Shown: positions 7,535 to 50,303 of the stretch, piece by piece | Position numbering within the stretch: the stretch's first letter is position 1 | How the letters are laid out: every line of letters begins with the position of its first letter | NCBI GenBank assembly: GCA_038063195.1 | Contig: JBBTVO010000003.1 | Location: 1 to 55,284 of the forward strand | Origin: Patescibacteria group bacterium | Lineage (GTDB): Bacteria > Patescibacteriota > Microgenomatia > Levybacterales > UBA12049 | Length of the DNA stretch: 55,284 bases | Direction: 5' to 3' | Translations under genes and position numbers: made by a program | The notes under the pieces: model-generated | The model's database searches: none | What the model saw: only the letters and a program-made list of their open reading frames with translations | What the model was told of the DNA's origin: nothing

Positions 7535-8023
7535 ATGAAAAATCCAATTATAATTTTTGTTCTAGTTACAATTGTTGCGGCTATAGGTATTGGCGCATAT
7601 ACTATTTCTCAAAAATCTTCTTCGCAGTCAGATTCCATGGCGAAAAAAGATGATGTATCCATCATACAAAAGGACGAAGGCACGATGGATAAAAGTGCCG
7701 GCTCCCGTTACGTTGAGTATTCAAGGGAGGCGTACGATCAAGCAGCAAGTAAACGTCGAGTGCTCTATTTTTACGCGACTTGGTGTCCATCGTGTAAACA
7801 GGCTAATGCAGATTTTACCGCAAACCCAAACAAAATCCCAGAAGATGTGGTAGTATTGCGGGTTAATTACAACGATCCTGATACAGATCAGGAAGAAAAA
7901 GATCTGGCTAAAAAGCATGGCATTATCTACCAACACACATTTGTTCAAATTGATATACAAGGAAATCAATTAACAAAGTGGAATGGCGGACAAACCGACG
8001 AACTTCTGGAAAATATTAAGTAA
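7535..8023 (+). CDS. membrane-anchored thioredoxin-like protein
   Basis: N-terminal TM segment, WCPSC redox motif; SD GGGAGGTGA upstream. Confidence 0.7.
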   Translation: MKNPIIIFVLVTIVAAIGIGAYTISQKSSSQSDSMAKKDDVSIIQKDEGTMDKSAGSRYVEYSREAYDQAASKRRVLYFYATWCPSCKQANADFTANPNKIPEDVVVLRVNYNDPDTDQEEKDLAKKHGIIYQHTFVQIDIQGNQLTKWNGGQTDELLENIK

Positions 8024-8026
8024 GTT

Positions 8027-9748
8027 ATGATTTTACTTGTCGTATTTGCATTTTTGGCGGGAGTAGTAACGATACTCTCGCCGTGTATATTGCCCGTTTT
8101 GCCAATAATCCTGTCTTCTTCTGTTGATACTACAGGAAAAAGACGGCCGCTCGGAGTGGTCGTAGGGTTTGTCTTAAGCTTTACCTTTTTTACCTTATTC
8201 CTTTCAATAATTGTAAGACTAAGCGGCATCCCTGCTGAATCCCTGCGTTTTGTATCTATCTTTATTTTGATTATCTTTGGTTTAAGTTTATTCGTTCCGA
8301 AAATTCAAGCATTGATGGAGAAAATGTTTAGTAATTTAAGCCGCTTTGCCCCAAGCGGGCAAACGAAGCATGGATTTTTTGGGGGATTAATTATTGGTCT
8401 TTCTCTTGGGCTGCTTTGGACTCCATGTGTCGGGCCAATACTTGCATCGGTTATATCTTTGGCAATTACGGGTACTGTAACATTTCAGGCTTTTATTATC
8501 ACTCTTTCTTACTCTTTGGGAACTTCTATTCCGATGTTTATTATTATGATTGGCGGTCAGAATATATTAAGACGCGTACCATGGATTTTGACTAATTCAG
8601 CAAAGATACAAAAAGCCTTCGGTGTCGTTATGATCATTACTGCTATTGGAATTTTCTTTAATCTTGACAGGAAATTTCAAACTTTTATTTTAAATACCTT
8701 CCCAAATTATGGAGTGGGATTGACTAAATTTGAAGACAACCAAATGGTCAAACAAAAACTTAAGGAAATAAATCAAAAACCAATGGAGGAAACAAACATC
8801 GGAAAGCCAATGTCAGAACTTATATTACCCAAGGGTCCAAGTGCTCCTGAAATTATTCCAGGCGGAGTTTGGTTCAATAGTAAACCGCTTAAGCTTTCAG
8901 AACTTCGAGGCAAGGTAGTAGTTATCGATTTTTGGACATACTCTTGCATAAATTGCCAGCGCACGATGCCTTATCTTCGAAGCTGGTGGGAGAAATACAA
9001 AGATAAGGGGTTGGTTATAATTGGGGTTCATTCGCCTGAGTTTGAATTTGAAAAAAATGAAAATAATGTAGCCCGTGCAATTTCTGATTTTAAACTTACT
9101 TATCCCATTGTTCAAGATAATGATTTTGCCACTTGGCAGGCTTACGACAATCATTACTGGCCGGCAAAATATTTTATTGATAAGGATGGAATAATTCGCT
9201 TCACGCATTTTGGAGAAGGCGCATATGATGAAAGCGAAGAAGTTATTCGAAAACTTCTTGCGGAAACCGGATCGGTTATCCCCACAGGATTCGTATCAAA
9301 TCCTCAATATGAAGTATATTCCAAAACTCCAGAAACTTATCTAGGGTATTTACGAACTCAGAATCTATCCTCACCCGAAAAAATCAATAAAGATGCTTCA
9401 GGGGTTTATACATCTCCTCAAAATTTACCCAATAATTATTTTGCCTACGAAGGTGTGTGGAATATTATGTCAGAGTACGCAAGCCCTGCCAAGAGTTCCA
9501 AATTGCATCTTAATTTTGAATCAAAAGAAGTCTTTCTGGTCGCCCGGTCCAAAGGCAAAACCTCAAGTTTTAAGGTTTATCTCGATGGGGAATTAAAATA
9601 TTTTGGAGAGGATAATCATAATGGGGTAGTGAATGTTGATTCAGACAGATTATACAAGCTTATTAATCTTCCGACTCCCGGACGCCATATCTTAAAAATC
9701 GAATTTGAAGACGGTAATGCAGAAGTTTACGCATTTACATTTGGGTAA
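8027..9748 (+). CDS. CcdA/DsbD-type thiol:disulfide transporter fused to a thioredoxin-like domain (DipZ-like)
   Basis: N-terminal multi-TM region with conserved Cys (LSPCILPV, WTPCVGP), then FWTYSCINCQRTMPYL redoxin domain and a C-terminal beta domain. Confidence 0.8.
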   Translation: MILLVVFAFLAGVVTILSPCILPVLPIILSSSVDTTGKRRPLGVVVGFVLSFTFFTLFLSIIVRLSGIPAESLRFVSIFILIIFGLSLFVPKIQALMEKMFSNLSRFAPSGQTKHGFFGGLIIGLSLGLLWTPCVGPILASVISLAITGTVTFQAFIITLSYSLGTSIPMFIIMIGGQNILRRVPWILTNSAKIQKAFGVVMIITAIGIFFNLDRKFQTFILNTFPNYGVGLTKFEDNQMVKQKLKEINQKPMEETNIGKPMSELILPKGPSAPEIIPGGVWFNSKPLKLSELRGKVVVIDFWTYSCINCQRTMPYLRSWWEKYKDKGLVIIGVHSPEFEFEKNENNVARAISDFKLTYPIVQDNDFATWQAYDNHYWPAKYFIDKDGIIRFTHFGEGAYDESEEVIRKLLAETGSVIPTGFVSNPQYEVYSKTPETYLGYLRTQNLSSPEKINKDASGVYTSPQNLPNNYFAYEGVWNIMSEYASPAKSSKLHLNFESKEVFLVARSKGKTSSFKVYLDGELKYFGEDNHNGVVNVDSDRLYKLINLPTPGRHILKIEFEDGNAEVYAFTFG

Positions 9749-9751
9749 ATG

Positions 9752-10000
9752 TTATTGATCTTTTATAATTTCAAAAAGTTTAACCCTTGATTTTTCGCCT
9801 GACAGAAGTCTTACGTAATTTCTTTTTACTTTAAAATATTCCGCAAGAGCTTCAATTACAGCTCTATTTGCCTTGCCTTCAAGCGGGGGTTGGCTGACAT
9901 AAACATGTAGGGTCTCCAATAAATCCTTTTCAACTCTTGCCTGCCTGCCGGCAGGCAGGGTCTTTTTCGAATTAGGATGCGCAATAACCGAAATCTTCAC
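9752..10000 (-). CDS. DUF167 (YggU-like) protein carrying an in-frame palindromic insert
   Basis: PPLEGKANRAVIEALAEYFKVKRNYVRLLSGEKSRVKLFEI. GTG at 10000 lies 6 nt after TGTATAAT. The longer track ORF (to 10069) reads through the promoter. Confidence 0.65.
   Translation of the reverse strand: MKISVIAHPNSKKTLPAGRQARVEKDLLETLHVYVSQPPLEGKANRAVIEALAEYFKVKRNYVRLLSGEKSRVKLFEIIKDQ
9940..9959. repeat. perfect 20-bp palindrome CCTGCCTGCCGGCAGGCAGG inside the DUF167 gene
   Basis: Encodes LPAGRQA in frame. Confidence 0.85.
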
Positions 10001-29470: not shown

Positions 29471-30514
29471 ATGATAAAGAAGAATGTTTTACTATCGGGT
29501 TTTTCAAGCTACAAGATTGGCGGTCCTGCGAAATATTTCGCAGAGATAGGAAACGAGAAAGATTTAATAGGAGTTTTTAAAAACCCCGAGGTGGCGAAGC
29601 TGTTCCACCTCCCAGGTGGTAAAGGCGTAGTTGTCTTGGGTGGCGGTACCAATGTTCTTATTGATGACAAAGGATATGATGGATTAGTCATCTTAAACAA
29701 AATTAAACACATAAAAAGAGACGGTTCAGATGTTATCGCCGGCTCAGGTGTTCAGATTGAAGATTTACTCAATTTTTGTATAGAAAATTCTCTGTCCGGC
29801 CTTGAGTGGGCAGGAGGACTGCCGGGAACTTTGGGCGGGGCAGTGCGGGGTAATGCCGGAGCATTCGGGGGAGAAATGAAAGACGTTGTAGTTAAAGTTA
29901 CGAGTTTAAGATTTGATTTTAAGCCTACAAGCGAACTTGCAAGGTCGGACCTTGTCAGCCGAATTGCAAGGTCGGACCTTGTCAGCCGAAATCCTGCAAC
30001 CTCGCAGGTTGGAAGAGAGATTCGGATAAGAAATAAAGACGAGTGCTCGTTTGGTTATAGAAATAGTGTTTTTAAATCACAGGTTTCCGATGAAATTATC
30101 ACAGAGGTGGTTTTAAATTTAAAAAAAGGCGATAGGGAAGCGATTAGGAAGCAAATTGAGGAAAAAATAAATTACAGGAAAGAAAGGCACCCCAGTCTTG
30201 TAAATGAGCCAAATGCAGGGAGCACCTTCAAAAATATTCCAATAGAAAATCTACCAAAAGCTGTGGCTGAAGAATTTAAAGATAAAATCAAGACTGATCC
30301 GTTTCCAGTACTTCCTGTAGTTAAGTTAATCGCAGGAGCGGGGATGACCGGACAAAGAGCGGGAAACATAGTAGTGTCTCCTATACACCCAAATTATTTA
30401 GTAAATATCGGAAAGGGAACTTCTCGGGATGTTTTAAGTTTAATAGATAGAATAAAAAAGGCGGTGAAAGAAAAATACGGGGTAGAATTAGAAGAAGAAA
30501 TAACATTAGTTTAA
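29471..30514 (+). CDS. murB: UDP-N-acetylenolpyruvoylglucosamine reductase with ~27-aa in-frame repeat insert
   Basis: GGGTNVLI, GLPGTLGGAVRGNAGAFGGE, FGYRNSVFK, AGSTFKN; ATG 6 nt after TATAAT. Confidence 0.85.
   Translation: MIKKNVLLSGFSSYKIGGPAKYFAEIGNEKDLIGVFKNPEVAKLFHLPGGKGVVVLGGGTNVLIDDKGYDGLVILNKIKHIKRDGSDVIAGSGVQIEDLLNFCIENSLSGLEWAGGLPGTLGGAVRGNAGAFGGEMKDVVVKVTSLRFDFKPTSELARSDLVSRIARSDLVSRNPATSQVGREIRIRNKDECSFGYRNSVFKSQVSDEIITEVVLNLKKGDREAIRKQIEEKINYRKERHPSLVNEPNAGSTFKNIPIENLPKAVAEEFKDKIKTDPFPVLPVVKLIAGAGMTGQRAGNIVVSPIHPNYLVNIGKGTSRDVLSLIDRIKKAVKEKYGVELEEEITLV
29937..30011 (+). repeat. in-frame repeat insert in murB: 2 x 27-bp tandem unit (each with palindrome CAAGGTCGGACCTTG) plus palindrome CAACCTCGCAGGTTG
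   Basis: Units at 29937-29963 and 29964-29990 are identical; encoded as LARSDLVSRIARSDLVSRNPATSQVG. Confidence 0.85.
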
Positions 30515-30551: not shown

Positions 30552-30911
30552 ATGACTAAAAAATCCAATACAAAATATGACCTCGAAGAAAGAACCGCAA
30601 AGTTGGGAGAAGATATTATTAAATTTTGTAAAAAAATTCCAAGAGGACCAGTAACGGATCCATTGATTAATCAATTGGTAAAATGCGGAACAAGCGTTGG
30701 TGCCAATTACTGCGAAGCGGATGATGCTGAGAGCAAACAGGATTTCAGGCATAAAATTGGTATTTGTAAAAAAGAATCTCGGGAAGCAAAGCATTTTCTC
30801 AGAATGATTGAGACTGCAGTGCCTGTACTAAAAGAAGAGATAAGGCCATTATGGCAGGAAGCAAAAGAATTAAACTTGATTTTTAATTCAATTTATATAA
30901 AAGTTAGATGA
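30552..30911 (+). CDS. four-helix-bundle protein (23S rRNA intervening-sequence protein / Avd-like family)
   Basis: NQLVKCGTSVGANYCEADDAESKQDFRHKIGICKKESREAKHFLRMI. Confidence 0.8.
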   Translation: MTKKSNTKYDLEERTAKLGEDIIKFCKKIPRGPVTDPLINQLVKCGTSVGANYCEADDAESKQDFRHKIGICKKESREAKHFLRMIETAVPVLKEEIRPLWQEAKELNLIFNSIYIKVR

Positions 30912-36651: not shown

Positions 36652-36675
36652 TTATATCTTATAGTTATTGTCAAG
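36652..36675 (+). repeat. junction repeat type R1 (TTATATCTTATAGTTATTGTCAAG, variant)
   Basis: Shares the TATAGT-TTGTCAAG core with 8 other copies. Confidence 0.7.
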
Positions 36676-36717
36676 TGGCTTTTTTGATGGATCGGATTAT
36701 AGCACTTGTATTTATCC

Positions 36718-36746
36718 TTGTCAAGGATAAAGGCTTCTGGTATGAT
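36718..36746 (+). promoter_or_regulatory. TTGTCA-17-TATGAT, 6 nt before the hicB ATG (duplicated at 38400-38428)
   Basis: Read directly. Confidence 0.6.
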
Positions 36747-36752
36747 ACATTC

Positions 36753-37007
36753 ATGGAGAAGAAAATCTTAAATTATAGAGTGGTTATTACACCAGATGAA
36801 AGGACCGGCAGGGGAAAGCCCTGTTACACTGCGTATGTGCCTCTCTTAGGTATTGCAACAGACGGAGATACGATTGAGGAGGCATTGATGAATGTGCAAG
36901 ATGCAATACTGGTTTATGTTAGGTCATTAAGAGAAGATGGGCAAGAGATTCCCCTAGAGTCAATTAATGGAGAATTTATTACAACCGCAAGCGTAGAATT
37001 ATCATAA
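36753..37007 (+). CDS. hicB: HicB-family antitoxin (copy 1)
   Basis: LNYRVVITPDERTGRGKPCYTAYVPLLGIATDGDTIEEAL; ATG 6 nt after TATGAT. Confidence 0.8.
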   Translation: MEKKILNYRVVITPDERTGRGKPCYTAYVPLLGIATDGDTIEEALMNVQDAILVYVRSLREDGQEIPLESINGEFITTASVELS

Positions 37008-37027
37008 AGAAAACACCTTAAGGCTAT

Positions 37028-37261
37028 ATGCCTAAATTGCCACAAATAAAAACAAAGATAATTTTGCGTGTGCTTCAAAAAGAAGGATTTATGAAAAGAC
37101 CAGGCAAAGGGAGCCATATTGTGCTTGCGCATTCAGATGGAAGAAGAACAGTTGTTCCCTTTCATAATAAACCACTTGCAAAGGGGACACTTCGGGCGAT
37201 TCTTAGACAGGCAAATATTTCCTTAGAGGAATTTCTACATCTCTTAAAAGAAAAGAGTTGA
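37028..37261 (+). CDS. hicA: HicA-family mRNA interferase toxin (copy 1)
   Basis: ILRVLQKEGFMKRPGKGSHIVLAHSDGRRTVVPFHNKPLAKGTLRAILRQ. Confidence 0.85.
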   Translation: MPKLPQIKTKIILRVLQKEGFMKRPGKGSHIVLAHSDGRRTVVPFHNKPLAKGTLRAILRQANISLEEFLHLLKEKS

Positions 37262-37287
37262 GCCAATTGCTAGAAGAGGCAGAACAG

Positions 37288-37311
37288 TTATATCTTATAG
37301 TCTTTGTCAAG
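37288..37311 (+). repeat. junction repeat type R1 (TTATATCTTATAGTCTTTGTCAAG)
   Basis: Exact core. Confidence 0.8.
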
Positions 37312-37370
37312 TGGTTTTTTTTGGGCTCCGACCCCGCGGGTCGAGCCGTAGAAAAAACATCAAGCAGGTT

Positions 37371-37793
37371 TTATCGGTAATCTTTTAAAGAAATTACTTG
37401 AATTCGCTTTGATTTCCCTTGATGCTTAATATTTTCAGTGACCAAAATAGCATTATATTGTTCTGCAATTGATAAAAATGAAGCATCATAATATGTAATC
37501 TTTAATGTTTGTGCTAGGCTATATGTAGTATTCGCAATGTCTTGGCTCATTGTAATAAAAGAAATGGGCAAAGAATAGAAGATTTTCATTAATGCTCCAA
37601 TATCTTCATGATCAATCTTTTTTCCAAAAAGAAGAGCATTACCAATCTCATATTTTAGAAGTTCCGGACAAAGAAGTTCAACTTGTTTTTCTCTTACATT
37701 TTCCAGGATTAGGTTCGCTTTATCAATATCATCTTCATTGTCTTGATTGAGCCATTTTATAGCAACAGAGGTGTCGATTACTAAAGAGGTCAT
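37371..37793 (-). CDS. vapC: PIN-domain toxin VapC
   Basis: MTSLVIDTSVAIKWL..., YDASFL acidic residues; start set at the internal ATG adjoining the vapB stop. Confidence 0.8.
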   Translation of the reverse strand: MTSLVIDTSVAIKWLNQDNEDDIDKANLILENVREKQVELLCPELLKYEIGNALLFGKKIDHEDIGALMKIFYSLPISFITMSQDIANTTYSLAQTLKITYYDASFLSIAEQYNAILVTENIKHQGKSKRIQVISLKDYR

Positions 37794-37794
37794 G

Positions 37795-38061
37795 TTAATG
37801 AGATAAGCGATCTTGTTGAATAAATTCTGAAGCACTTTTACTTCCTTTCCCATGAATAGATCGTGCTTTTCGTATACCTTCCCAAATCTGTTTCCAGTCA
37901 ACTTGTTTCTGATGAGGCTTGATTATGATTTCGTCAGGTTTAATCACAGAAATTGAAACTGCTGATGAAGGAGTAACCCAATTCACCAACTTACGGATTG
38001 AGTCGGGGATAGTTAATTGTCCTCTTTCTCTTATTATTGCTGTTCCTTGCGTGTTTATCAT
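37795..38061 (-). CDS. vapB: AbrB/SpoVT-type antitoxin VapB
   Basis: IRERGQLTIPDSIRKLVNW; TTGACA-17-TATTCT-6-ATG. Confidence 0.75.
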   Translation of the reverse strand: MINTQGTAIIRERGQLTIPDSIRKLVNWVTPSSAVSISVIKPDEIIIKPHQKQVDWKQIWEGIRKARSIHGKGSKSASEFIQQDRLSH

Positions 38062-38067
38062 AGAATC

Positions 38068-38096
38068 AGAATATCAGAAATTCAGAAAGTTGTCAA
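38068..38096 (-). promoter_or_regulatory. TTGACA-17-TATTCT, 6 nt before the vapB ATG
   Basis: Read directly. Confidence 0.6.
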
Positions 38097-38104
38097 TAGT
38101 ATTC

Positions 38105-38152
38105 GGAAGTCCACCTCCGAGGTGGGATTAGGGCTGCTATAGTCTTTGTCAA
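38105..38152 (+). repeat. junction repeat type R2 (GGAAGTCCACCTCCGAGGTGGGATTAGGGCTGCTATAGTCTTTGTCAA)
   Basis: Palindrome CCACCTC-C-GAGGTGG plus the core. Confidence 0.8.
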
Positions 38153-38213
38153 CCCCTTTTTTCGTAGCATTTTCCCCAGGTGCCGCTACAAATCCACCGT
38201 TCGGCTGAGCTCA

Positions 38214-38239
38214 CGGCCGAAGCCTCCCGGGTGGATCGG
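38214..38239 (+). repeat. 26-bp GC-rich element CGGCCGAAGCCTCCCGGGTGGATCGG (copy 1)
   Basis: Identical to 41711..41736; abuts a toxin gene remnant. Confidence 0.75.
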
Positions 38240-38245
38240 GGTGAG

Positions 38246-38290
38246 ATCGTGAGGACCAATAGTAATAACATAAATTTCCGCTTGATGCAA
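38246..38290 (-). pseudogene. remnant of a RelE/ParE-like toxin 3' end
   Basis: Minus-strand AEIYVITIGPHD matches the EIYILTIGPHD end of 41751..42008. DNA atcgtgaggaccaatagtaa is shared. No N-terminal part remains. Confidence 0.45.
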
Positions 38291-38354
38291 GATTTTTCTT
38301 AACGTTCCATGGGGGGGGATTGGTTTTGGATAGATTGGGCTTATTCAACAGCAC

Positions 38355-38375
38355 TTTCGAGGTTGAACCTCGAAA
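38355..38375. repeat. palindrome TTTCGAGGTT-G-AACCTCGAAA
   Basis: 10-bp perfect arms; same AACCTCG word as the other elements. Confidence 0.7.
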
Positions 38376-38434
38376 ATCCGAAAGCACTTGTATTTACCCT
38401 TGTCAAGGATAAAGGCTTCTGGTATGATACATTC

Positions 38435-38689
38435 ATGGAGAAGAAAATCTTAAATTATAGAGTGGTTATTACACCAGATGAAAGGACCGGCAGGGGAAAG
38501 CCCTGTTACACTGCGTATGTGCCTCTCTTAGGTATTGCAACAGACGGAGATACGATTGAGGAGGCATTGATGAATGTGCAAGATGCAATACTGGTTTATG
38601 TTAGGTCATTAAGAGAAGATGGGCAAGAGATTCCCCTAGAGTCAATTAATGGAGAATTTATTACAACCGCAAGCGTAGAATTATCATAA
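38435..38689 (+). CDS. hicB: HicB-family antitoxin (copy 2, identical protein)
   Basis: Same translation as copy 1. Confidence 0.8.
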   Translation: MEKKILNYRVVITPDERTGRGKPCYTAYVPLLGIATDGDTIEEALMNVQDAILVYVRSLREDGQEIPLESINGEFITTASVELS

Positions 38690-38709
38690 AGAAAACACCT
38701 TAAGGCTAT

Positions 38710-38943
38710 ATGCCTAAATTGCCACAAATAAAAACAAAGATAATTTTGCGTGTGCTTCAAAAAGAAGGATTTATGAAAAGACCAGGCAAAGGGAGCCATA
38801 TTGTGCTTGCGCATTCAGATGGAAGAAGAACAGTTGTTCCCTTTCATAATAAACCACTTGCAAAGGGGACACTTCGGGCGATTCTTAGACAGGCAAATAT
38901 TTCCTTAGAGGAATTTCTACATCTCTTAAAAGAAAAGAGTTGA
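38710..38943 (+). CDS. hicA: HicA-family toxin (copy 2, identical protein)
   Basis: Same translation as copy 1. Confidence 0.85.
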   Translation: MPKLPQIKTKIILRVLQKEGFMKRPGKGSHIVLAHSDGRRTVVPFHNKPLAKGTLRAILRQANISLEEFLHLLKEKS

Positions 38944-38969
38944 GCCAATTGCTAGAAGAGGCAGAACAG

Positions 38970-38993
38970 TTATATCTTATAGTCTTTGTCAAG
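38970..38993 (+). repeat. junction repeat type R1
   Basis: Exact core; part of the 612-bp duplication. Confidence 0.8.
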
Positions 38994-39040
38994 TAGTTTT
39001 TTAAAATTTACAGTTAAAATTTACTCACATCTGCCAACGT

Positions 39041-39078
39041 CAACCTACGAGGTTGCAGGCTCACAACCTCGTAGGTTG
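39041..39078. repeat. double-palindrome element CAACCTACGAGGTTG-N8-CAACCTCGTAGGTTG
   Basis: Perfect 15-bp inverted arms, each arm itself near-palindromic. Confidence 0.8.
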
Positions 39079-39097
39079 GGAAATCGGTATTTGGATT

Positions 39098-39146
39098 GGA
39101 AGTCCACCTCGGAGGTGGGATTAGAGCTGCTATAGTCTTTGTCAGG
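39098..39146 (+). repeat. junction repeat type R2
   Basis: GGAAGTCCACCTCGGAGGTGGGATTAGAGCTGCTATAGTCTTTGTCAGG. Confidence 0.8.
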
Positions 39147-39158
39147 CCCCACCGCCTT

Positions 39159-39827
39159 TTAGTTGAGTAGTGCCTTTTTTTTTAATTTTCTTGCTTCTTC
39201 AAGCCAGAAATTTTGCCAGACTGAAGGAGCGGTTTTATGAAGCATACGTGGATAATCTTTTAGTTCTGTTACTTGCAAAAGCTGCTGACCCAACTGTAAC
39301 GGGTCAATATGTGTATCAAATTTTATTCTGGCTTTTTGAAGCAAATTATCAAACTTCCATTGTTTTTTTTGCAGGATTAAGTATAGGTCGATAAAGTCGC
39401 GACTGCGAGGGTTCTGGTAAATCGTGAATGTTTTATTTACAGCAATATCAATTAGGCTCTCGACGATTACGTGATCAACTGCATGAGGTTTTTCTATCTC
39501 CGAGAAGGGAAAGTAGGTGAATTCTGTTTTTATAACTTCGTTTTCAAAATGAAGAAAAAATAAATTACGATTATAACTTTGTTGAAAGTCTATTTTTTTT
39601 ATTTTTAATATTGGTATTAATTTCTTTAATATAATCTGAATAGTAAAAGGATCTACTTCCATTTCGCTAAAAAGATCAAGGTCTTCCGAATATCTGTGAT
39701 GTAAGTAATATTCTGAAAGAGCAGTACCGCCGGTTAAGTAGAAATGAGAGAATATATCAGTCTGTAAAAAAAGCTGTTTAAGAAGACTTGTTTGCTTCGT
39801 AGTTAAGATTGTTTTGACCATAGCCAA
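39159..39827 (-). CDS. nucleotidyltransferase AbiEii/AbiGii-family toxin-like protein
   Basis: YLTGGTALSEYYLHHRYSEDLDLFS. Confidence 0.75.
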   Translation of the reverse strand: MAMVKTILTTKQTSLLKQLFLQTDIFSHFYLTGGTALSEYYLHHRYSEDLDLFSEMEVDPFTIQIILKKLIPILKIKKIDFQQSYNRNLFFLHFENEVIKTEFTYFPFSEIEKPHAVDHVIVESLIDIAVNKTFTIYQNPRSRDFIDLYLILQKKQWKFDNLLQKARIKFDTHIDPLQLGQQLLQVTELKDYPRMLHKTAPSVWQNFWLEEARKLKKKALLN

Positions 39828-40006
39828 AAGGATAAAAGCTTTCGCCTTTTTGGGTCAATCTTAAGTTCCTTCCAGTACTTAATAAGTTGGCTTGTGTTTA
39901 ATTTCTCGTCATTTAATCCAAAATTAATCAATTGCTCAAGCTTCCAGATTTCATAAGCCCTTTTGTCTTTTTTAAGAAACGATGTGTTCACGCTCCAGTT
40001 ATACAT
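39803..40006 (-). CDS. small partner protein of the AbiEii-like NTase (DUF6922-like)
   Basis: 67 aa. Pattern W..n...L..d...I.KLEQLINFG...L..YW resembles its paralog 43040..43264. TTGATA-17-TATAAT-9-ATG. Confidence 0.5.
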   Translation of the reverse strand: MYNWSVNTSFLKKDKRAYEIWKLEQLINFGLNDEKLNTSQLIKYWKELKIDPKRRKLLSFWLWSKQS

Positions 40007-40071
40007 AATAAGAATATTATATACGGATTTTGGCAGCTTATCAAGAGTACCGTGGCTATCAAAGCGTCCCA

Positions 40072-40095
40072 GTTTATCTTATAGTCTTTGTCAAG
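40072..40095 (+). repeat. junction repeat type R1 (GTTTATCTTATAGTCTTTGTCAAG)
   Basis: Exact core. Confidence 0.8.
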
Positions 40096-40161
40096 CCCCT
40101 CTTCACGGGTTCTCCTACCCAGTTGGTAAAGTATGCAGTGTGCTTCGCAAGTAAAGAGTTG

Positions 40162-40270
40162 CCCACCTTAGAGGTGGGATTAGTGCGAACTTAGACCTAT
40201 AGATTTAGACCTACGAGGTTCCAGCTTGCCAACCTCGTAGGTCGGAAGCTGCGCTGTAATCTTTGTCAAG
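40162..40270 (+). repeat. junction repeat type R2 interrupted by a ~60-bp palindromic element
   Basis: CCCACCTTAGAGGTGGGATTAGTGCG ... GCTGCGCTGTAATCTTTGTCAAG, with the insert at about 40188-40247. Confidence 0.7.
40188..40247. mobile_element. candidate miniature palindromic insertion (GACCTACGAGGTT-N10-AACCTCGTAGGTC with TTAGACCTA direct repeats)
   Basis: Splits an otherwise conserved R2 repeat; TGCG / GCTGCG flank both sides. Confidence 0.45.
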
Positions 40271-40289
40271 CCCCGTTTTAAGGCTGGAT

Positions 40290-40664
40290 TTAGCTATGCT
40301 CATGAAACTTTCCTTTAAAAACTTCATATTTATCTTGATTTAGGATAACTAGTGTATCTTTAAGGGTTTTGTTTCTCCAATGCCTGACAAATTTACTAAA
40401 AACATTTAATAGACGTTGAGACACATTTCCGCTATATCGAATTAGAATTAAGCCAAACCTTGTTGCATCTTCATAAGAAGTGATTCTTATTAATCCCAGA
40501 TCGCGAGTAACAAGCGTACGTCTTAAGGTGTTGGATTTTTTGACAATTTCCTGATCGGGGGCTTGCGTAAGTTGAAGTTCATAAACAGTTTTTAGATCGA
40601 TGTGGAGCGATCTGAAGTGATCGATGATAATTTTTGGAACGTTTTCATCGAAAAATAATTTCAT
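40290..40664 (-). CDS. DUF5615 (Mut7-C/PIN-like) toxin-like protein
   Basis: MKLFFDENVPKIIIDHF...LVTRDLG. Confidence 0.75.
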   Translation of the reverse strand: MKLFFDENVPKIIIDHFRSLHIDLKTVYELQLTQAPDQEIVKKSNTLRRTLVTRDLGLIRITSYEDATRFGLILIRYSGNVSQRLLNVFSKFVRHWRNKTLKDTLVILNQDKYEVFKGKFHEHS

Positions 40665-40921
40665 TCAAGAGAGGCAATATGAATTTTATCTCTTTTCGTA
40701 TCCAAGAAGTGAATCTCTTCTCCCGCAACGGTTTTGGCGGCATATTTTACTGCAGCTAGAATAGCGTCTTTTGTGATTTGAGGGTAGTAATCTTTAAGAA
40801 TTTTCTTTTCACTAGCGCCCGTTGCCAGAAGTTCTAAGATCATATATACAGGAATACGAGTACCAGAAATTACGGGCTTGCCCCCTAAAATTTTTGGATC
40901 AACAACAATTTTCTGTTTCAT
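40661..40921 (-). CDS. DUF433 antitoxin-like protein
   Basis: KIVVDPKILGGKPVISGTRIPVYMILELLATG; the ATG at 40921 overlaps the upstream stop (ATGA). Confidence 0.8.
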   Translation of the reverse strand: MKQKIVVDPKILGGKPVISGTRIPVYMILELLATGASEKKILKDYYPQITKDAILAAVKYAAKTVAGEEIHFLDTKRDKIHIASLE

Positions 40922-41115
40922 ATGGCTTGCTCCTGTGGTGGCAATATATTGTCTTTTAGTAATCCTTCCAAGTGGCATTGAATTGCTTCATCCAGATTTT
41001 TTCTTGTTTCCTCAATTGTCTTACCAATAGTATGAACACCCCTGAGAAGAGGAGCGAATCCATGATATCCTTTTTCGTCTGGTTCAATGATGGTTCTAAA
41101 TGTATAAGTTTTCAT
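40918..41115 (-). CDS. HicB-like (UPF0150) small protein
   Basis: YTFRTIIEPDEKGYHGFAPLLRGVHTIGKTIEETRKNLDEAI; TTGACT-16-TAAAAT-6-ATG. Confidence 0.65.
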   Translation of the reverse strand: MKTYTFRTIIEPDEKGYHGFAPLLRGVHTIGKTIEETRKNLDEAIQCHLEGLLKDNILPPQEQAI

Positions 41116-41121
41116 ATTTCT

Positions 41122-41149
41122 ATTTTAGCATCTTAGTTTTTTAAGTCAA
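41122..41149 (-). promoter_or_regulatory. TTGACT-16-TAAAAT, 6 nt before the ATG at 41115
   Basis: Read directly. Confidence 0.55.
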
Positions 41150-41175
41150 GGCTTCTTAAACCAATTGCTAAATTT

Positions 41176-41499
41176 TTAAGACGCGGGCTGGATTTGTTCG
41201 AGGGTTTTAATTCTTCCTTCGTGGTCGTCGACTTGATCTTTAAGTTCTGAATATTGATGCGTTTCAAGATCTCGCTCATCTCTTCTGGTTTCCAGTTCGC
41301 TCATCACGCCGTCTAGTTTGGTGAGTATTTGATCCCGATATTTTTTCGCATTTTCATCAATTTCCTCTTTAAATCCTTCCAGTTTAAAATCAATCCCTCT
41401 TCCTAAAGATCCTAGTTCATCTTTGGTTGCCAACCTTGCTAGCCTTTTTTTTAAATACTCTTTAGTTATGGCCTCTGAGGAACTTATTTTGCTTTTCAT
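41176..41499 (-). CDS. coiled-coil small protein (paralog A)
   Basis: MKSKISSSEAITKEYLKKRLARLATKDEL...DHEGRIKTLEQIQPAS. The N-terminal part of the track ORF is read-through of the repeat. Confidence 0.5.
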   Translation of the reverse strand: MKSKISSSEAITKEYLKKRLARLATKDELGSLGRGIDFKLEGFKEEIDENAKKYRDQILTKLDGVMSELETRRDERDLETHQYSELKDQVDDHEGRIKTLEQIQPAS

Positions 41500-41556
41500 A
41501 GTGAATACTAGTATAGCATTGGTGTAACAATATCTGTCAAGGCATCGAAAGAAAGC

Positions 41557-41608
41557 GAAGCTGTCCCACCTCGGAGGTGGGATTAGAGTTGCTATAGTCT
41601 TTGTCAAG
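41557..41608 (+). repeat. junction repeat type R2
   Basis: GAAGCTGTCCCACCTCGGAGGTGGGATTAGAGTTGCTATAGTCTTTGTCAAG. Confidence 0.8.
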
Positions 41609-41615
41609 TATCTTT

Positions 41616-41711
41616 TTAGATTATCTTTTTTCTATCTATTCCAATACGAATATATCCGTTCTTCTTAAAACATTCATCAAACCCAAAAATATCTTTAGTA
41701 TCGAAATGATC
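41616..41711 (-). pseudogene. C-terminal remnant of a PIN-domain toxin
   Basis: Minus-strand DHFDTKDIFGFDECFKKNGYIRIGIDRKKII* resembles a VapC C-terminus. It is truncated at the 26-bp GC-rich element. Confidence 0.35.
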
Positions 41712-41736
41712 GGCCGAAGCCTCCCGGGTGGATCGG
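41711..41736 (+). repeat. 26-bp GC-rich element (copy 2)
   Basis: Identical to 38214..38239; abuts the PIN remnant. Confidence 0.75.
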
Positions 41737-41750
41737 ATAAGATTAAGACT

Positions 41751-42008
41751 TCACTTTTTTCCTAGGCCCTCATCGTGAGGACCAATAGTAAGAATATAAA
41801 TTTCATCTTTTTCAACTTGAAAAGTAAAACGGTAGTGAATATCTATCCTTGCTTCAAACACTTCGCCACCACCCATTTTTCTTGTCCGAAGAGATGGATG
41901 GCGGTAATTTACGAGAAGAAAATCGAATTGACGTTTTGCCTTCGCCTGGATGCTTTTCGGATGCTTAGAGAGTTGCTTTCGAACACGCGGAGAGATAACA
42001 AGGTTCAT
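41751..42008 (-). CDS. RelE/ParE-superfamily toxin
   Basis: 85 aa, ...FEARIDIHYRFTFQVEKDEIYILTIGPHD; 4-nt overlap with the upstream antitoxin gene. Confidence 0.7.
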   Translation of the reverse strand: MNLVISPRVRKQLSKHPKSIQAKAKRQFDFLLVNYRHPSLRTRKMGGGEVFEARIDIHYRFTFQVEKDEIYILTIGPHDEGLGKK

Positions 42009-42241
42009 AAACTCTTAAAGAATGCGTCGAGCTCCTTCTTGTTAGTTATTTTAATTCCTTTTCCAGCTTTAATCTCTTTTAAGGCTTTTTCATCAGACCA
42101 TTCCCACCAAGCATCACTTCCATAATGAGGCTCTTTTTCAAAAAGTTTTGTTTTAATAACTTTTATTTCTCTAGTAAGCTTGTCAAGGCGAGCAAGAATT
42201 TCTTCTATTGTTTTTGGAGAAACGGTAATTGCCTGATTCAT
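42005..42241 (-). CDS. putative antitoxin of the RelE-like toxin
   Basis: 78-aa ORF translationally coupled to the toxin. Confidence 0.5.
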   Translation of the reverse strand: MNQAITVSPKTIEEILARLDKLTREIKVIKTKLFEKEPHYGSDAWWEWSDEKALKEIKAGKGIKITNKKELDAFFKSL

Positions 42242-42310
42242 ACTGATATCTATTTTATAACAGTTTAAAACTCTCTGTCAACACTTCTTGTGCCCAAATA
42301 ATACAGGGTA

Positions 42311-42355
42311 TCCCACCTCGGAGGTGGGATTAGGATTGCTATAGTCTTTGTCAAG
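42311..42355 (+). repeat. junction repeat type R2
   Basis: TCCCACCTCGGAGGTGGGATTAGGATTGCTATAGTCTTTGTCAAG. Confidence 0.8.
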
Positions 42356-42415
42356 TATTATTCAGACGCAGAGTTGGCGTTGAAGCTCAGCGTTAAGAAG
42401 GCCTGAGTACGGATT

Positions 42416-43030
42416 TTATCCTAAATTTTTCACTTCACCTAAAAACCACTTTTTTATTTCTTCCCAGTCTGTTTCGATTAGCATTTGGGGCATCTCATCC
42501 CCATCCGCTTCTTCAAAAAAAACAAGAGATTTTCGTATCATAATTTCTTTCTCTTCCAAATTACCGTACTTTTTCTGATAAAAAGAGAACATCTCTTTTA
42601 AAGAAAATTTTTGTGAAAGAAAGTAAATATCTATGAAATCCCTTTTGGTTCCCCTTGCGATTATCGTATCAAGTTTCATTGCGCAAAGATCAGGAGCAGA
42701 TGCCACTGGTAACTCCAGGAAGTATTCAAAAGCGGCAATTTGCTTATATTTATATGAAAATAGGGAAAACTTAATTCCATTTACAGTTCCAATTAGAGTC
42801 TGCCAGTCTCTTTTTATCAGCTTAAGGCTGAGGTCTTTTTTTAATTTCTCCTCCCATTGTCTTTCTGCAAACTCATAAGGCGTAAAAAAATCCAGATCTA
42901 TAGACTTTCGGTGCCCCAAATGGAGGGCAACTGCTGTTCCTCCGGCCAGATATGATTTTTCTGGTAAATTACCCGGTTTTAATTTTTCAAGAAGATTCTT
43001 TGTTTGAAGAAGTAAAATATTTTCAAACAT
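42416..43030 (-). CDS. nucleotidyltransferase AbiEii/AbiGii-family toxin-like protein (second copy)
   Basis: YLAGGTAVALHLGHRKSIDLDFFTP. Confidence 0.75.
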   Translation of the reverse strand: MFENILLLQTKNLLEKLKPGNLPEKSYLAGGTAVALHLGHRKSIDLDFFTPYEFAERQWEEKLKKDLSLKLIKRDWQTLIGTVNGIKFSLFSYKYKQIAAFEYFLELPVASAPDLCAMKLDTIIARGTKRDFIDIYFLSQKFSLKEMFSFYQKKYGNLEEKEIMIRKSLVFFEEADGDEMPQMLIETDWEEIKKWFLGEVKNLG

Positions 43031-43736: not shown

Positions 43737-43764
43737 TAGTTGCTAGCCGCTAGTTGCTAACTTA
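43737..43764. repeat. heptamer array TAGTTGC TAGCCGC TAGTTGC TAACTTA
   Basis: Abuts the stop of 43762..44454. Confidence 0.75.
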
Positions 43765-44454
43765 ATAGCCGGGGAAGGAGTCGAGTTTTATATTTTCTTT
43801 TGATACGCCTTGGGATTTTGCTATATCGCGGAGGGCGCGGACAAAAGGAGCAGGACCGGAGATATAGAAAATTGAAGAATTGCTAAATTGTTCTATTGTT
43901 AAATTGTCTATGTGGTTTGGAGAAATGACATATTCGATCTTAAGGCTTGGATTGTCTTTTCTAAATGATTCGAGCTCACTTTTGAATACGAAATCTTCGT
44001 CTCGGTTACCATACAGGAGTTTTACGTTTAATTTTTGTCCATCATGATCAGCTTGTTTAAGAATAGAGCGGAAGGGAGTTATGCCAATTCCTCCTGAAAT
44101 GAAGACAAAATTTCTCTTTGGATCCTCAACTCCGATTAAATCGGAGTCAATTACGAATTGTCCGTCAGGACCGCTTGCTTCTATTTCATCTCCGGACTTA
44201 AGCTTCATCAATGATTTTTTAAAAGTACTGGGCTTATCAAAAATTCTCGTAGTAATTGCGACATGTCCTTCAAATGGAGCAGAGGAGATAGTAAAGTATC
44301 GGGTCACACCTCTATTATCTGGATTATTGTTTGGGATTGTGTAAAATAAGTACTGTCCCGCTTTCCATACAAGGTCGGACCTCGTTTTGGGTTTAAAAAT
44401 AAAGGAGTAGGTGTCTCCTTCAGCTTTGTGTTTTTCCTGAAAAATTAGCTTCAT
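43762..44454 (-). CDS. ferredoxin-NADP reductase-like FAD/NAD(P)-binding oxidoreductase
   Basis: RYFTISS (RxYS FAD motif), GGIGITPF NAD(P) motif; start set at MKLIFQEK. Confidence 0.7.
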   Translation of the reverse strand: MKLIFQEKHKAEGDTYSFIFKPKTRSDLVWKAGQYLFYTIPNNNPDNRGVTRYFTISSAPFEGHVAITTRIFDKPSTFKKSLMKLKSGDEIEASGPDGQFVIDSDLIGVEDPKRNFVFISGGIGITPFRSILKQADHDGQKLNVKLLYGNRDEDFVFKSELESFRKDNPSLKIEYVISPNHIDNLTIEQFSNSSIFYISGPAPFVRALRDIAKSQGVSKENIKLDSFPGY

Positions 44455-44652
44455 ATTTCTTTTTCTTCTCTTTTTCCGAAAAGAGAAGCAGAAACTCTTC
44501 GCCAAGCGGTGCTCGTGCTTTCAAATCTCACTCTCTTAACGGGCCCCTTTCCCGTTAGGGTATTCTCCCTGTTGCACTTATTCAATTCTCATGCACTGCG
44601 CTCCAAAAGGCGAATAAAAAAAAACACTCGATACCGGATTGGCAAATAAAAA

Positions 44653-48400: not shown

Positions 48401-49503
48401 ATTTCAATAAGATTTTTTGGGGAATGGGTGAGGAGACGGAAGCCTCTATTTTCTAAAACTGCCAAGTCTTCGATGCGGACGCCGCCGTAGCCGGGAATAT
48501 AAATCCCAGGCTCTATTGAGAAAACCATTCCCGGTTTTAGAATATCTTTACTTTTTGGTGAAAGACTTGGTGCTTCGTGGACTTCAATTCCAATTCCGTG
48601 TCCCAGAGAATGGGGAATTGTCGGATAACCTTGTCCGACAACATAGTTACGGGCGATATTATCAATACTAGAAGCTTTAATTGTATTATATATCGATATA
48701 TGATACAACGATTCGATTGCTTTTTGTTGGGATTCTAGAACGATATTGTAAATTTTTTTAAATTTATCATCAGCCTTTCCGAAAAAGACAGTCCGAGTCA
48801 TATCCGAACAATAGTTTTCAAATTTAACTCCAAAGTCCAACAGAACAATGTTATTAGTTATTAGTTTTTCGTTATTCGATTTATGGTGAGGCATTGAAGA
48901 GTTTTTTCCGAAAGCAACTATGGGAGGGAAAGAAATATCAGCTCCTGACTTTTTGATAAACATTTCGAGCTCACGTGCGACTTCTTTTTCTGTAACGCCT
49001 ACTTTTAGTTTCTTTAAAATAAATTCAAACGCTTTATCTCCTAACTCACATGCTCTCTCTATTTTTGAAATTTCATCTTTACTTTTTATAATTCTTAAAT
49101 TTCGCAAATCCTTCAAAGGCTTAACTCTGAAATATTTCTTCAGTTTTTTGTATTCTGCAAGGCTTATGTCAGTCTCTTCAGCTCCAATACTTTTGATTTC
49201 CGCAGATAGATTTTTGAGGATATTCTCAAAGGAATTATCTGATGAGATTTCTAGAAGTTTGAAATGAGGAATACTGGAGACCGCTTCTGAATACCTTCCA
49301 TCGGTTAAGATATATCCATAAACCCCAGGGGTTTTGTGCTTCAACCCCTGGGGTTGAGCCAAGACCAGCAGAAATGCTTCGCGCTCCAGATACGAAAACC
49401 CATTGTAATTTGTAAGATAAACAATATCAGAGACTGAGGAAATAAGTACGGCATCAAGTTTGTTCTCTGAAATAATTTCACGAACTTTCCTTAGCTTGTC
49501 CAT
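48397..49503 (-). CDS. pepP: Xaa-Pro aminopeptidase, family M24B, with in-frame palindromic insert
   Basis: DMTRT, HSLGHGIGIEVHE, GGVRIED metal-ligand motifs. Confidence 0.85.
   Translation of the reverse strand: MDKLRKVREIISENKLDAVLISSVSDIVYLTNYNGFSYLEREAFLLVLAQPQGLKHKTPGVYGYILTDGRYSEAVSSIPHFKLLEISSDNSFENILKNLSAEIKSIGAEETDISLAEYKKLKKYFRVKPLKDLRNLRIIKSKDEISKIERACELGDKAFEFILKKLKVGVTEKEVARELEMFIKKSGADISFPPIVAFGKNSSMPHHKSNNEKLITNNIVLLDFGVKFENYCSDMTRTVFFGKADDKFKKIYNIVLESQQKAIESLYHISIYNTIKASSIDNIARNYVVGQGYPTIPHSLGHGIGIEVHEAPSLSPKSKDILKPGMVFSIEPGIYIPGYGGVRIEDLAVLENRGFRLLTHSPKNLIEI
49321..49355. repeat. in-frame double palindrome in pepP: AACCCCAGGGGTT-N9-AACCCCTGGGGTT
   Basis: Perfect 13-bp inverted arms; encodes QPQGLKHKTPGV on the minus strand. 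Confidence 0.85.
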
Positions 49504-50303
49504 TATTGCCCAGGGGATTTGGTAGTTTTAACTTTTGAAGTGGGAGTAGGTGTTCCAGTTGTTGCCTCAACTTTTATATTTGAAGTAACATCGGGAAGCG
49601 CAATTATACGGGATGCCTCAAAAAGACCTGCCTGACCGGCAGGCAGGCCTGAATTATTTTTGCCCGGATATCCTACAATTACAATTGTTTGTCCTATTTC
49701 AAGTTTTGAGAACCCTGATTTTACGAGCTCTTTTTTATCCCGATCATATGAAAATGTTCTCGTCGATGATTCCACGTTGACGTCGTGGGTTTTATTATCC
49801 AAATCCGTCAGGACAAGAGTAAAATTTTTGGTATCCATTTTTGAAACTACTCCATGCATAACCTGAGGAAGATCAATTTCATCGATAAACCTTGCGAGAA
49901 TTCTTCGTGACTCTTTGTTATAAAGGCCAAGTACGCCGATTTTATCACCCTTTTTTATATCTGATATGCCAAAAGATTTTGTCTGTGGGGAGCTGAACTG
50001 CGTAAACTCATCAACATCAATAAATTTAGTATTTTCATGAATATCACTGAGCGTAATCTGCGTATTTGAAACATTTACAACCTCTCCCATGATTCCCTTT
50101 TTCTCTACAAGCTTTAACTGTGCCACGCGGGATGCGATCTTACTTGAAAGGGAGTTGATCTGTTTCTGTATAAGACTGGGTGATGGAGTAGATGTAACTC
50201 TTGGTGTGGTTTTGGGCGTGGGGGATATAGCATAGGAAGAAGACATAGAGAAGCTATTAAGATATAAAGATATTATGAGTAAAAGTATTGGAATTCTTTT
50301 CAT
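49503..50303 (-). CDS. secreted hypothetical protein
   Basis: Signal-like N-terminus; contains the GLPAGQAGL palindrome-encoded segment. Confidence 0.5.
   Translation of the reverse strand: MKRIPILLLIISLYLNSFSMSSSYAISPTPKTTPRVTSTPSPSLIQKQINSLSSKIASRVAQLKLVEKKGIMGEVVNVSNTQITLSDIHENTKFIDVDEFTQFSSPQTKSFGISDIKKGDKIGVLGLYNKESRRILARFIDEIDLPQVMHGVVSKMDTKNFTLVLTDLDNKTHDVNVESSTRTFSYDRDKKELVKSGFSKLEIGQTIVIVGYPGKNNSGLPAGQAGLFEASRIIALPDVTSNIKVEATTGTPTPTSKVKTTKSPGQ
49627..49647. repeat. palindrome CCTGCCTG-ACCGG-CAGGCAGG inside 49503..50303
   Basis: 8-bp perfect arms; encodes GLPAGQAGL. Confidence 0.8.

Follow-up and report, generated by a model that had tools for sequence, protein, structure and literature searches.

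Nested REP-type palindromes in frame in the murB gene of a groundwater Patescibacterium and their probable link to a RAYT-like transposase

The stretch of DNA analysed here, which is 55,284 nucleotides long and is called the window in the following, comes from an ultrasmall groundwater bacterium of the Patescibacteria, or candidate phyla radiation (CPR). It contains an intact murB gene in which an initial annotation had noticed a palindromic insert that keeps the reading frame. The placement of this insert holds, as the open reading frame (ORF) is uninterrupted and its product was identified as MurB by matches to the solved structures 4pyt, 1hsk and 3tx1 in a protein search (E 5e-34 to 5e-30). 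The Pfam domains FAD_binding_4 and MurB_C were found on homologues of the protein. R197, S251 and E342 are invariant columns of the MurB alignment (A1), and we take them to be the catalytic residues that correspond to R159, S229 and E325 of E. coli MurB. An AlphaFold2 model of the protein reached a mean predicted local distance difference test (pLDDT) score of 83. Outside the loop that carries the insert, Foldseek superposed the model on the solved MurBs 3tx1, 4pyt and 1hsk with template modelling scores of 0.75-0.79 by query length; for the closest MurB type, the scores by target length reached 0.87-0.88.

The insert expands the turn of a β-hairpin. From R147 to E183 the protein has 37 residues, compared to six in the insert-free relatives P0002, P0003 and P0008, which are about 60% identical to it in the alignment. 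To compare this region more widely, the distance between the motifs RGNAGAF and FxYRxS was measured in about 60 CPR genomes. It is 30 residues there, rarely 29, 31 or 32, and 61 in the window. The initial annotation had stated that a short β-hairpin normally separates the two motifs, and relatives do lack the insert. Its estimate of about 80 bp for the insert was too low, since the expansion over the 30-residue base state amounts to 31 codons (93 bp), in a turn spanning 29909-30019. The insert had also been supposed to be tolerated in a surface loop, and the model is consistent with this: residues 151-180 have a pLDDT below 50 and are flanked by the predicted strands 140-147 and 183-188.

At the DNA level, Tandem Repeats Finder (TRF) reported a 27-bp period with 2.1 copies and a score of 111 at 29932-29990, in agreement with the exact tandem duplication of 27 bp that had been read from the sequence. 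Each unit carries the palindrome CAAGGTCGGACCTTG, which has a 6-bp stem and a CGG loop, and the two copies can also pair with each other, which gives an extended 14-bp stem interrupted by a single mismatch. A third hairpin, CAACCTCGCAGGTTG, follows at 29997-30011 and is surrounded by an imperfect inverted repeat (29992-30016). Folded as single-stranded DNA, the 96-nt tract has a free energy of -21.9 kcal/mol (z = -4.2). The three hairpins are thus present as described, whereas a second repetitive extragenic palindrome (REP)-like tract of murB at 29588-29619 had been missed. It belongs to the CCACCTnnnAGGTGG family and has homologous counterparts at 41555-41580 and, in the murB of L198, at the 'KVARLFHLSGGEAG' site; several relatives of this MurB carry longer inserts at the same site. 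The insert had been called GC-rich, and its GC content of 0.525 does exceed the window mean of 0.39, but the excess is modest, as the Gly-rich core of murB reaches 0.64. In an Rfam scan no match was found in the insert region, and the sole match of the window at gathering score was a tRNA.

Inserts of other lengths were observed in related MurBs. The motif distance is 52 residues in L001, 42 in L003, 40 in L005 and 36 in L031. The extra codons number 6, 10, 12, 22 or 31, with inserts of 21 and 27 nt in the window; the length of each is divisible by three, and none contains a stop codon. The insert DNA of L198 (TTAACCTGCGAGGTTGATGATCCTGCAACCTCGCAGGTTGGAGG), L197 (TCAACCTGCGAGGTTGGCGATCCTGCAACCTCGCAGGTTGGAGG) and L003 (TTAACCTACGAGGTTACAGAATCACCAACCTCGCAGGTTGGAAG) is an inverted doublet of the AACCT family at the same murB site, which reads (S/L)T(C/Y)EV...TSQVG and has the same architecture as the intergenic CAACCTACGAGGTTG-N8-CAACCTCGTAGGTTG of the window. 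The 23-nt sequence ATCCTGCAACCTCGCAGGTTGGA is the longest exact match of the window's murB with the murB of L197 and L198 (70-71% DNA identity), and 20 nt of it are the sole match of at least 12 nt with the murB of L003 (64.7% DNA identity). At 29927-29938, the window has ACA AGC GAA CTT ('TSEL') where the relatives have ACC TGC GAG GTT ('TCEV'). In the murB of L031, a hairpin of the AACCTnnnAGGTT family is also found at a different site. In a rough neighbour-joining tree, doublet-bearing and empty-site MurBs are intermingled, which suggests repeated gain or loss of the doublet at this site. L003 (H52-bin033_1) is the closest species-level genome; its murB carries hairpins from two families, and a RAYT-like gene (for REP-associated tyrosine transposase; 7583-8396) lies directly upstream of it.

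These comparisons suggest that the insert of the window was built up in three layers. The oldest would be an inverted AACCTnnnAGGTT doublet, which has kept its spacer and right arm (ATCCTGCAACCTCGCAGGTTGGA) intact while its left arm has probably decayed. Next, a 21-nt palindrome (7 codons) from the TGACAAGGTCSGACCTTGTCA family would have been inserted into the spacer of this doublet, and finally the 27-bp unit that contains the palindrome (9 codons) would have been duplicated in tandem, most likely by replication slippage or hairpin-assisted misalignment. This order is proposed because the layers of the window align with the doublet of the relatives and because the sister strain L001 shares the palindrome. 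The duplication was seen in the strain of the window only.

The sister strain provides a direct view of the last layer. Protein P0001 from a Hainich groundwater assembly is 97% identical to the window's MurB and 338 amino acids long. Over 12.4 kb, L001, L002 and L106 share about 97.5% DNA identity with the window, and they have exactly one 27-bp unit fewer; the 27 bp missing from L001 and L002 match either unit equally well. This indel is the largest of 12 between both strains, and the remaining ones are small repeat changes. The copy-number form was judged from contigs, run by run. The two-unit form was recovered with 0 differences and 0 gaps in contigs of X1, X3, X5 and X9, that is in four runs from four samples and at least two studies; these contigs cover 29700-30300, and the X9 contig covers 29906-30137. 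No contig with one unit was found in the runs X1, X5 and X6, although contigs lose rare variants. Since four independent run assemblies reproduce the two units and the sister strain has one, the 27-bp duplication is a strain-level polymorphism and not an artefact of assembly.

The palindromes of murB belong to families that are dispersed in this genome and beyond. With hairpins defined by a 6-bp stem, a 3-nt loop and a GC content of at least 50%, the window contains 20, four of them in murB, compared to 4.9 ± 2.2 in order-2 Markov simulations. As the initial annotation had proposed, the third palindrome of the insert is akin to intergenic DNA of the toxin-antitoxin (TA) island, where relatives of CAACCTCGCAGGTTG were found with one mismatch at 39041-39078 and with two mismatches at 40230. 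A metagenome scan with the query CAAGGTCSGACCTTGTCA for the CAAGGT-family palindrome gave 114 stretches, most of which carry the full 21-nt TGACAAGGTCSGACCTTGTCA on low-GC contigs, many from the same aquifer. Matches with a GC content above 0.5 appear to be unrelated homologous genes or chance and were left out of the counts. The short palindrome CAAGGTCSGACCTTG is dispersed, with 3 copies in the window, 4 in L188 and 145 in the 114 metagenome stretches, while AACCTnnnAGGTT and CACCTnnnAGGTG, in 1.25 Mb of CPR loci, were confined to the window and its nearest relatives. Doublets of the type known as REPINs, with two inverted REPs and a short spacer, are present in the window (39041-39078 and 40209-40245) and in the murB of L197, L198 and L003. 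CAAGGT-family doublets occur in L092, L096, L111, L129 and L137, and GAGGTC-family doublets in L201.

A transposase gene accompanies the palindrome. In 13 of the 114 loci, a RAYT-like ORF lies within tens of bases of TGACAAGGTCSGACCTTGTCA. Its protein has 216-245 amino acids and the motifs YHxYNRG, MPNHFHL (the HUH motif), GxYK and YIHxNP, and it matches Pfam Y1_Tnp with 38.6-43.4 bits (cutoff 23). Usually the gene has one palindrome just beyond either end, the two being in inverted orientation, and another one inside it that reads TRSDLV. In the Levybacteria genome L200, for example, a copy with a CCG loop lies 19 nt upstream, a copy with a CGG loop lies 9 nt downstream and one palindrome lies inside the gene. 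The palindrome sequence changes with the transposase lineage: the transposase of L200 is 65% identical and has the palindrome CAAGGTCSGACCTTG, that of L201 (Microgenomates) is 57% identical and is flanked by doublets of a different palindrome, GAGGTCSAACCTC, and that of L003 lies between inverted CCACCTCTAAGGTGG and CCACCTTAGAGGTGG of the CCACCTnnnAGGTGG family. In L188, L200 and L201, whose transposases are 57-65% identical, the gene lies at the same place in a type IV pilus cluster, with the prepilin peptidase gene on one side and a pilin gene on the other (L188 48-6582, L200 5139-7557, L201 4994-7558), and this shared chromosomal position may point to vertical inheritance of the transposase. 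More than 7000 database proteins match it at E ≤ 1e-10; the names given to them, where there are any, do not go beyond "transposase", "putative transposase" or "hypothetical protein", and they come from metagenome-assembled genomes (MAGs) of Patescibacteria, Levybacteria, Microgenomates and Curtissbacteria.

A RAYT-like transposase gene is very probably present elsewhere in the genome of the murB gene. In three Logan runs the transposase contig and the murB contig had co-varying depths (45.3 and 43.8, 21.9 and 19.8, 4.0 and 4.77), L188 and the one-copy murB contig share the Hainich H41 assembly (cov 12 and cov 11), and L188 also contains the other hairpin types of the window, CCCACCTCCGAGGTGGG and CGACCCCGCGGGTCG.

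The frequency of the palindromes inside genes was assessed by counting a copy as in-gene if at least 60 nt inside an ORF of at least 120 amino acids, which is a crude criterion. On contigs with a GC content of at most 0.5, 44 of the 102 non-redundant copies (about 43%) lie inside ORFs, compared to 73% for random positions. The palindromes are thus depleted in ORFs relative to chance, yet they are not almost exclusively extragenic. Nine out of ten palindrome-bearing ORFs tested are recognisable genes, and the hosts include Obg, endonuclease III (Nth), a transketolase-like protein, an FAD oxidase, a GT4 glycosyltransferase, TsaD, a glycerate-kinase-like protein and topoisomerase I (TopA). TRSDLV, which is also encoded by a variant in an FNR-like oxidoreductase gene of the window (Table 1), is the commonest reading of the CAAGGT-family palindrome in metagenome ORFs. 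The RSDL frame is used by 28 of the in-gene copies and the other two frames by 8 each. In the frame that could place a TGA stop in the outer part of the palindrome, GGA, AGA, ATA or CGA is always found instead; little weight is put on this, because the observation is partly circular, copies having been classed as coding by lying in open frames. In Obg and Nth, the six residues encoded by the palindrome (TRSDLV) fill a native loop without added length in comparison to the loops of E. coli and B. subtilis. Such loop-replacing copies lie at L121 2999-3016, L112 675-692 and L162 1887-1904, and the loop of other bacteria at these places is equal or longer.

The anatomy of the insert, the orthologues with and without it, the dispersed copies of the palindromes and their association with a Y1/HUH gene were all observed directly, and on this basis we consider it probable that the murB insert is a nested cluster of REP-type palindromes, in frame in a surface β-hairpin turn of MurB and linked to a RAYT-like system. 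The transposase would copy the palindromes as single-stranded hairpins, and selection would retain only those copies that preserve the frame, carry no stop and lie in permissive loops. MurB would tolerate the translated tract, which is predicted to form a disordered loop of some 31 residues. Several results weigh against this interpretation. The best and only NCBIfam match of the transposase, NF047646 (REP_Tyr_transpos), scores 42.9 bits and so stays below the curated RAYT cutoff of 80, which looks like the mark of a divergent RAYT clade. Among solved structures, the only match was a marginal one to ISDra2 TnpA of the IS200/IS605 family (E 0.08), and no structure of a REP-associated transposase was matched. 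The window itself encodes no RAYT, and it is by co-abundance that the gene is assigned to this genome. No RAYT was found linked to the AACCT family (AACCTSNSAGGTT doublets). A GTAG/CGTC tag was not found, and 98 oriented copies show no conservation outside the 21-nt palindrome. No transposition event was observed, murB was not found in the RNA runs searched, which bears on translation, and the replacement of the Obg and Nth loops is unexplained by simple insertion.

A bolder version of this interpretation is possible but tentative. The transposases might form a large and divergent RAYT-like clade that is inherited vertically in Microgenomates-type Patescibacteria, is lodged in the pilus cluster and places its palindromes routinely inside genes as loop modules (TRSDLV, QGRTLS, DKVGPC, TSQVG), some of which overwrite native loops at the same length. 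The palindromes would in this case be kept more conserved than the neighbouring codons. If true, this would be a REP lifestyle fitted to genomes nearly without intergenic space, which could supply loop variation in essential enzymes or a function at the nucleic-acid level.

It seems unlikely that the palindromes are instead host signals that are under selection as DNA or as RNA and that recombination spreads or homogenises, with murB merely tolerating them. Candidates for such signals are DNA-uptake sequences of a competence pilus, protein-binding sites or structural elements of the mRNA. The hairpin is the most conserved murB DNA between genomes of 65-71% identity although it encodes a disordered loop, the transposase-like gene of three genomes is part of their type IV pilus clusters, and the palindrome of Obg and Nth replaces a loop without lengthening it. 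In Haemophilus and Neisseria, uptake sequences are likewise present within coding regions and can be arranged as inverted pairs. On the other hand, the window and L188 have about one copy in every 10-20 kb, which is far below the known density of uptake sequences, and one genome holds several unrelated palindrome families. The inverted palindromes around the Y1 gene and their co-variation with the transposase lineage are a signature of REP/RAYT systems, and the depletion in ORFs also argues against a host signal.

It is very improbable that a native, lineage-specific MurB loop has grown by local slippage alone, with coincidental palindromes and no repeat family. The 27-bp duplication is of the slippage type, like the other small repeat changes between the strains, and loop length varies among MurBs. 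However, the same 15-21-nt sequences recur at sites that are not homologous, between genes, within many unrelated genes and beside transposase genes, and both the hairpin excess and the exact identity over 20-23 nt across genes of 65-71% identity speak against it. Least likely of all is that the duplication is an assembly artefact or that the insert is bypassed or excised rather than translated: the evidence comes from contigs instead of raw reads, murB was missing from the RNA runs and ribosomes of Magnusiomyces mitochondria bypass GC-rich palindromic inserts in AT-rich genes, but the contigs of four runs span the site faultlessly, the 54-bp repeat is shorter than the read length, and a bypassed or excised element would have no need to be a stop-free multiple of three.

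The features described here are listed in Table 1. Downstream of murB, a gene at 30552-30911 encodes a four-helix-bundle '23S rRNA intervening sequence protein' and is syntenic in L001 and L197; another gene for such a protein lies in the pilus cluster of L201. The TA island (36675-43030) contains HicB/HicA twice, PIN, AbiEii twice and a DUF433/DUF5615 pair. Its cassettes are separated by the 52-nt repeat GGAAGTCCACCTCSGAGGTGGGATTAGRGCTGCTATAGTCTTTGTCAA (38105, 39098, 41560 and 42307) and by seven copies of TATAGTCTTTGTCAAG, and it includes an exact duplicate of 300 nt (37000-37299 and 38682-38981). The ORF of an M24 Xaa-Pro peptidase carries the inverted pair AAACCCCAGGGGTTT/TCAACCCCTGGGGTTGA at 49320-49357, which reads 'AQPQGLKHKTPGV'; aligned to PDB 1wn1, this peptidase shows no clear difference in length. 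Hairpins of the form CCTGCC...GGCAGG lie at 9938-9959 and 49627-49647, in a DUF167 gene and an unassigned ORF.

Table 1. Positions in the window of murB, the parts of its insert and related palindromic sites
Feature	Position	Strand	Basis
murB coding sequence, intact, 347 amino acids	29471..30514	+	ORF, PDB matches, alignment
Second REP-like murB tract, GAGGTGGCGAAGCTGTTCCACCTCCCAGGTGG ('EVAKLFHLPGG')	29588..29619	+	Homology to other sites
Expanded β-hairpin turn, residues R147-E183	29909..30019	+	Alignment, motif distances, AlphaFold2 model
Probable decayed left arm of the old AACCTnnnAGGTT doublet	29927..29938	+	Inference, alignment of relatives
27-bp unit, copy 1, TTGCAAGGTCGGACCTTGTCAGCCGAA	29937..29963	+	TRF, strain comparison
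REP palindrome CAAGGTCGGACCTTG, 6-bp stem, CGG loop, reads 'RSDL' within ARSDLVS	29940..29954	+	Repeat search
27-bp unit, copy 2, identical to copy 1	29964..29990	+	TRF, strain comparison
Second copy of CAAGGTCGGACCTTG	29967..29981	+	Repeat search
Spacer and right arm of the old doublet, ATCCTGCAACCTCGCAGGTTGGA (hairpin 29997-30011)	29991..30013	+	Alignment of relatives
Intergenic inverted doublet CAACCTACGAGGTTG-N8-CAACCTCGTAGGTTG	39041..39078	.	Repeat search; second copy 40209-40245
Variant CAAGGTCGGACCTCG in FNR-like oxidoreductase ORF (43762-44505, -), reads 'TRSDLV'	44370..44384	-	Sequence search

In theory, mobile repeats cannot last in gene-dense genomes, most insertions being lethal to genes. 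Judging from our data, these ultrasmall bacteria seem to carry REP families with about four in ten of their copies in frame in housekeeping genes, and in murB such REPs are nested and still shift in copy number between strains of 97.5% identity. This offers a natural system in which the coexistence of such elements with essential proteins can be studied. In practical terms, the palindromes give rise to spurious "lineage-specific insertions" when CPR proteins are aligned or their structures predicted, and they account for some assembly breaks near transposase genes in CPR MAGs.

The insert probably represents a genomic parasite of a known kind; for this lineage, and for so high a share of copies inside genes, we know of no earlier description. 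No account of REP/RAYT systems or in-frame palindromes in Patescibacteria was found in the literature searched, the coverage of which is incomplete, so that this is absence of evidence only. REP/REPIN-RAYT systems (Nunvar 2010, PMC2817692; Bertels & Rainey 2011, PMC3116915; bioRxiv 10.1101/2021.07.10.451892) share with the present case the dispersed short palindromes, the inverted doublets with a short spacer, the Y1/HUH gene flanked by inverted palindromes, the co-variation of palindrome and transposase, and, as far as three genomes indicate, the conserved slot. Published REPINs are said to lie nearly always outside genes (bioRxiv 10.1101/2021.07.10.451892), whereas about 43% of the non-redundant copies here lie inside long ORFs. 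The palindromes here also lack the GTAG/CGTC tag, the doublets measure about 38 nt instead of about 100 nt, and the transposase, with 216-245 amino acids, stays under the NCBI cutoff for RAYTs. REPs in frame in genes have been documented in Opitutus, Rickettsia, Thauera and others, where intragenic dimers encode 20-30 residues and clusters 43-82, and a few of the genes carry two insertions (Di Nocera et al. 2013, PMC3733652). The REPs of this survey are mostly intergenic; they carry a GTAG or CGTC tag, and genes of DNA replication and repair are prominent hosts (PMC3733652). Our case resembles these intragenic REPs in its in-frame monomers, dimers and clusters and in that one gene, murB, is hit twice, and it differs in the missing tag, the high intragenic share, the nested layers and the copy-number polymorphism between strains.

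The initial annotation had likened the insert to Rickettsia palindromic elements (RPEs), and the comparison stands as far as in-frame palindromes in a housekeeping gene are concerned. RPE-1 elements are about 100-150 bp long, and to our knowledge no cognate transposase is known for them. Here, by comparison of descriptions only, the units are REP-type palindromes of 15-21 nt, the doublets measure about 38 nt and there is a candidate RAYT. The Rickettsia elements are palindromic repeats in frame in housekeeping genes (Ogata et al. 2000, as cited in PMC3733652 and PMC3184786), and in both cases the bacterium has a small genome and its proteins apparently tolerate the insertions. Programmed translational bypass elements (byps) do not match, as the inserts neither break the frame nor carry stops. 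With the IS200/IS605 elements (TnpA, e.g. ISDra2, PDB 2xm3), the system has Pfam Y1_Tnp, the HUH motif and subterminal hairpins in common. In contrast to these elements, the gene here is fixed between pilus genes in three genomes instead of being scattered, and its hairpins also occur as stand-alone repeats far from the gene.

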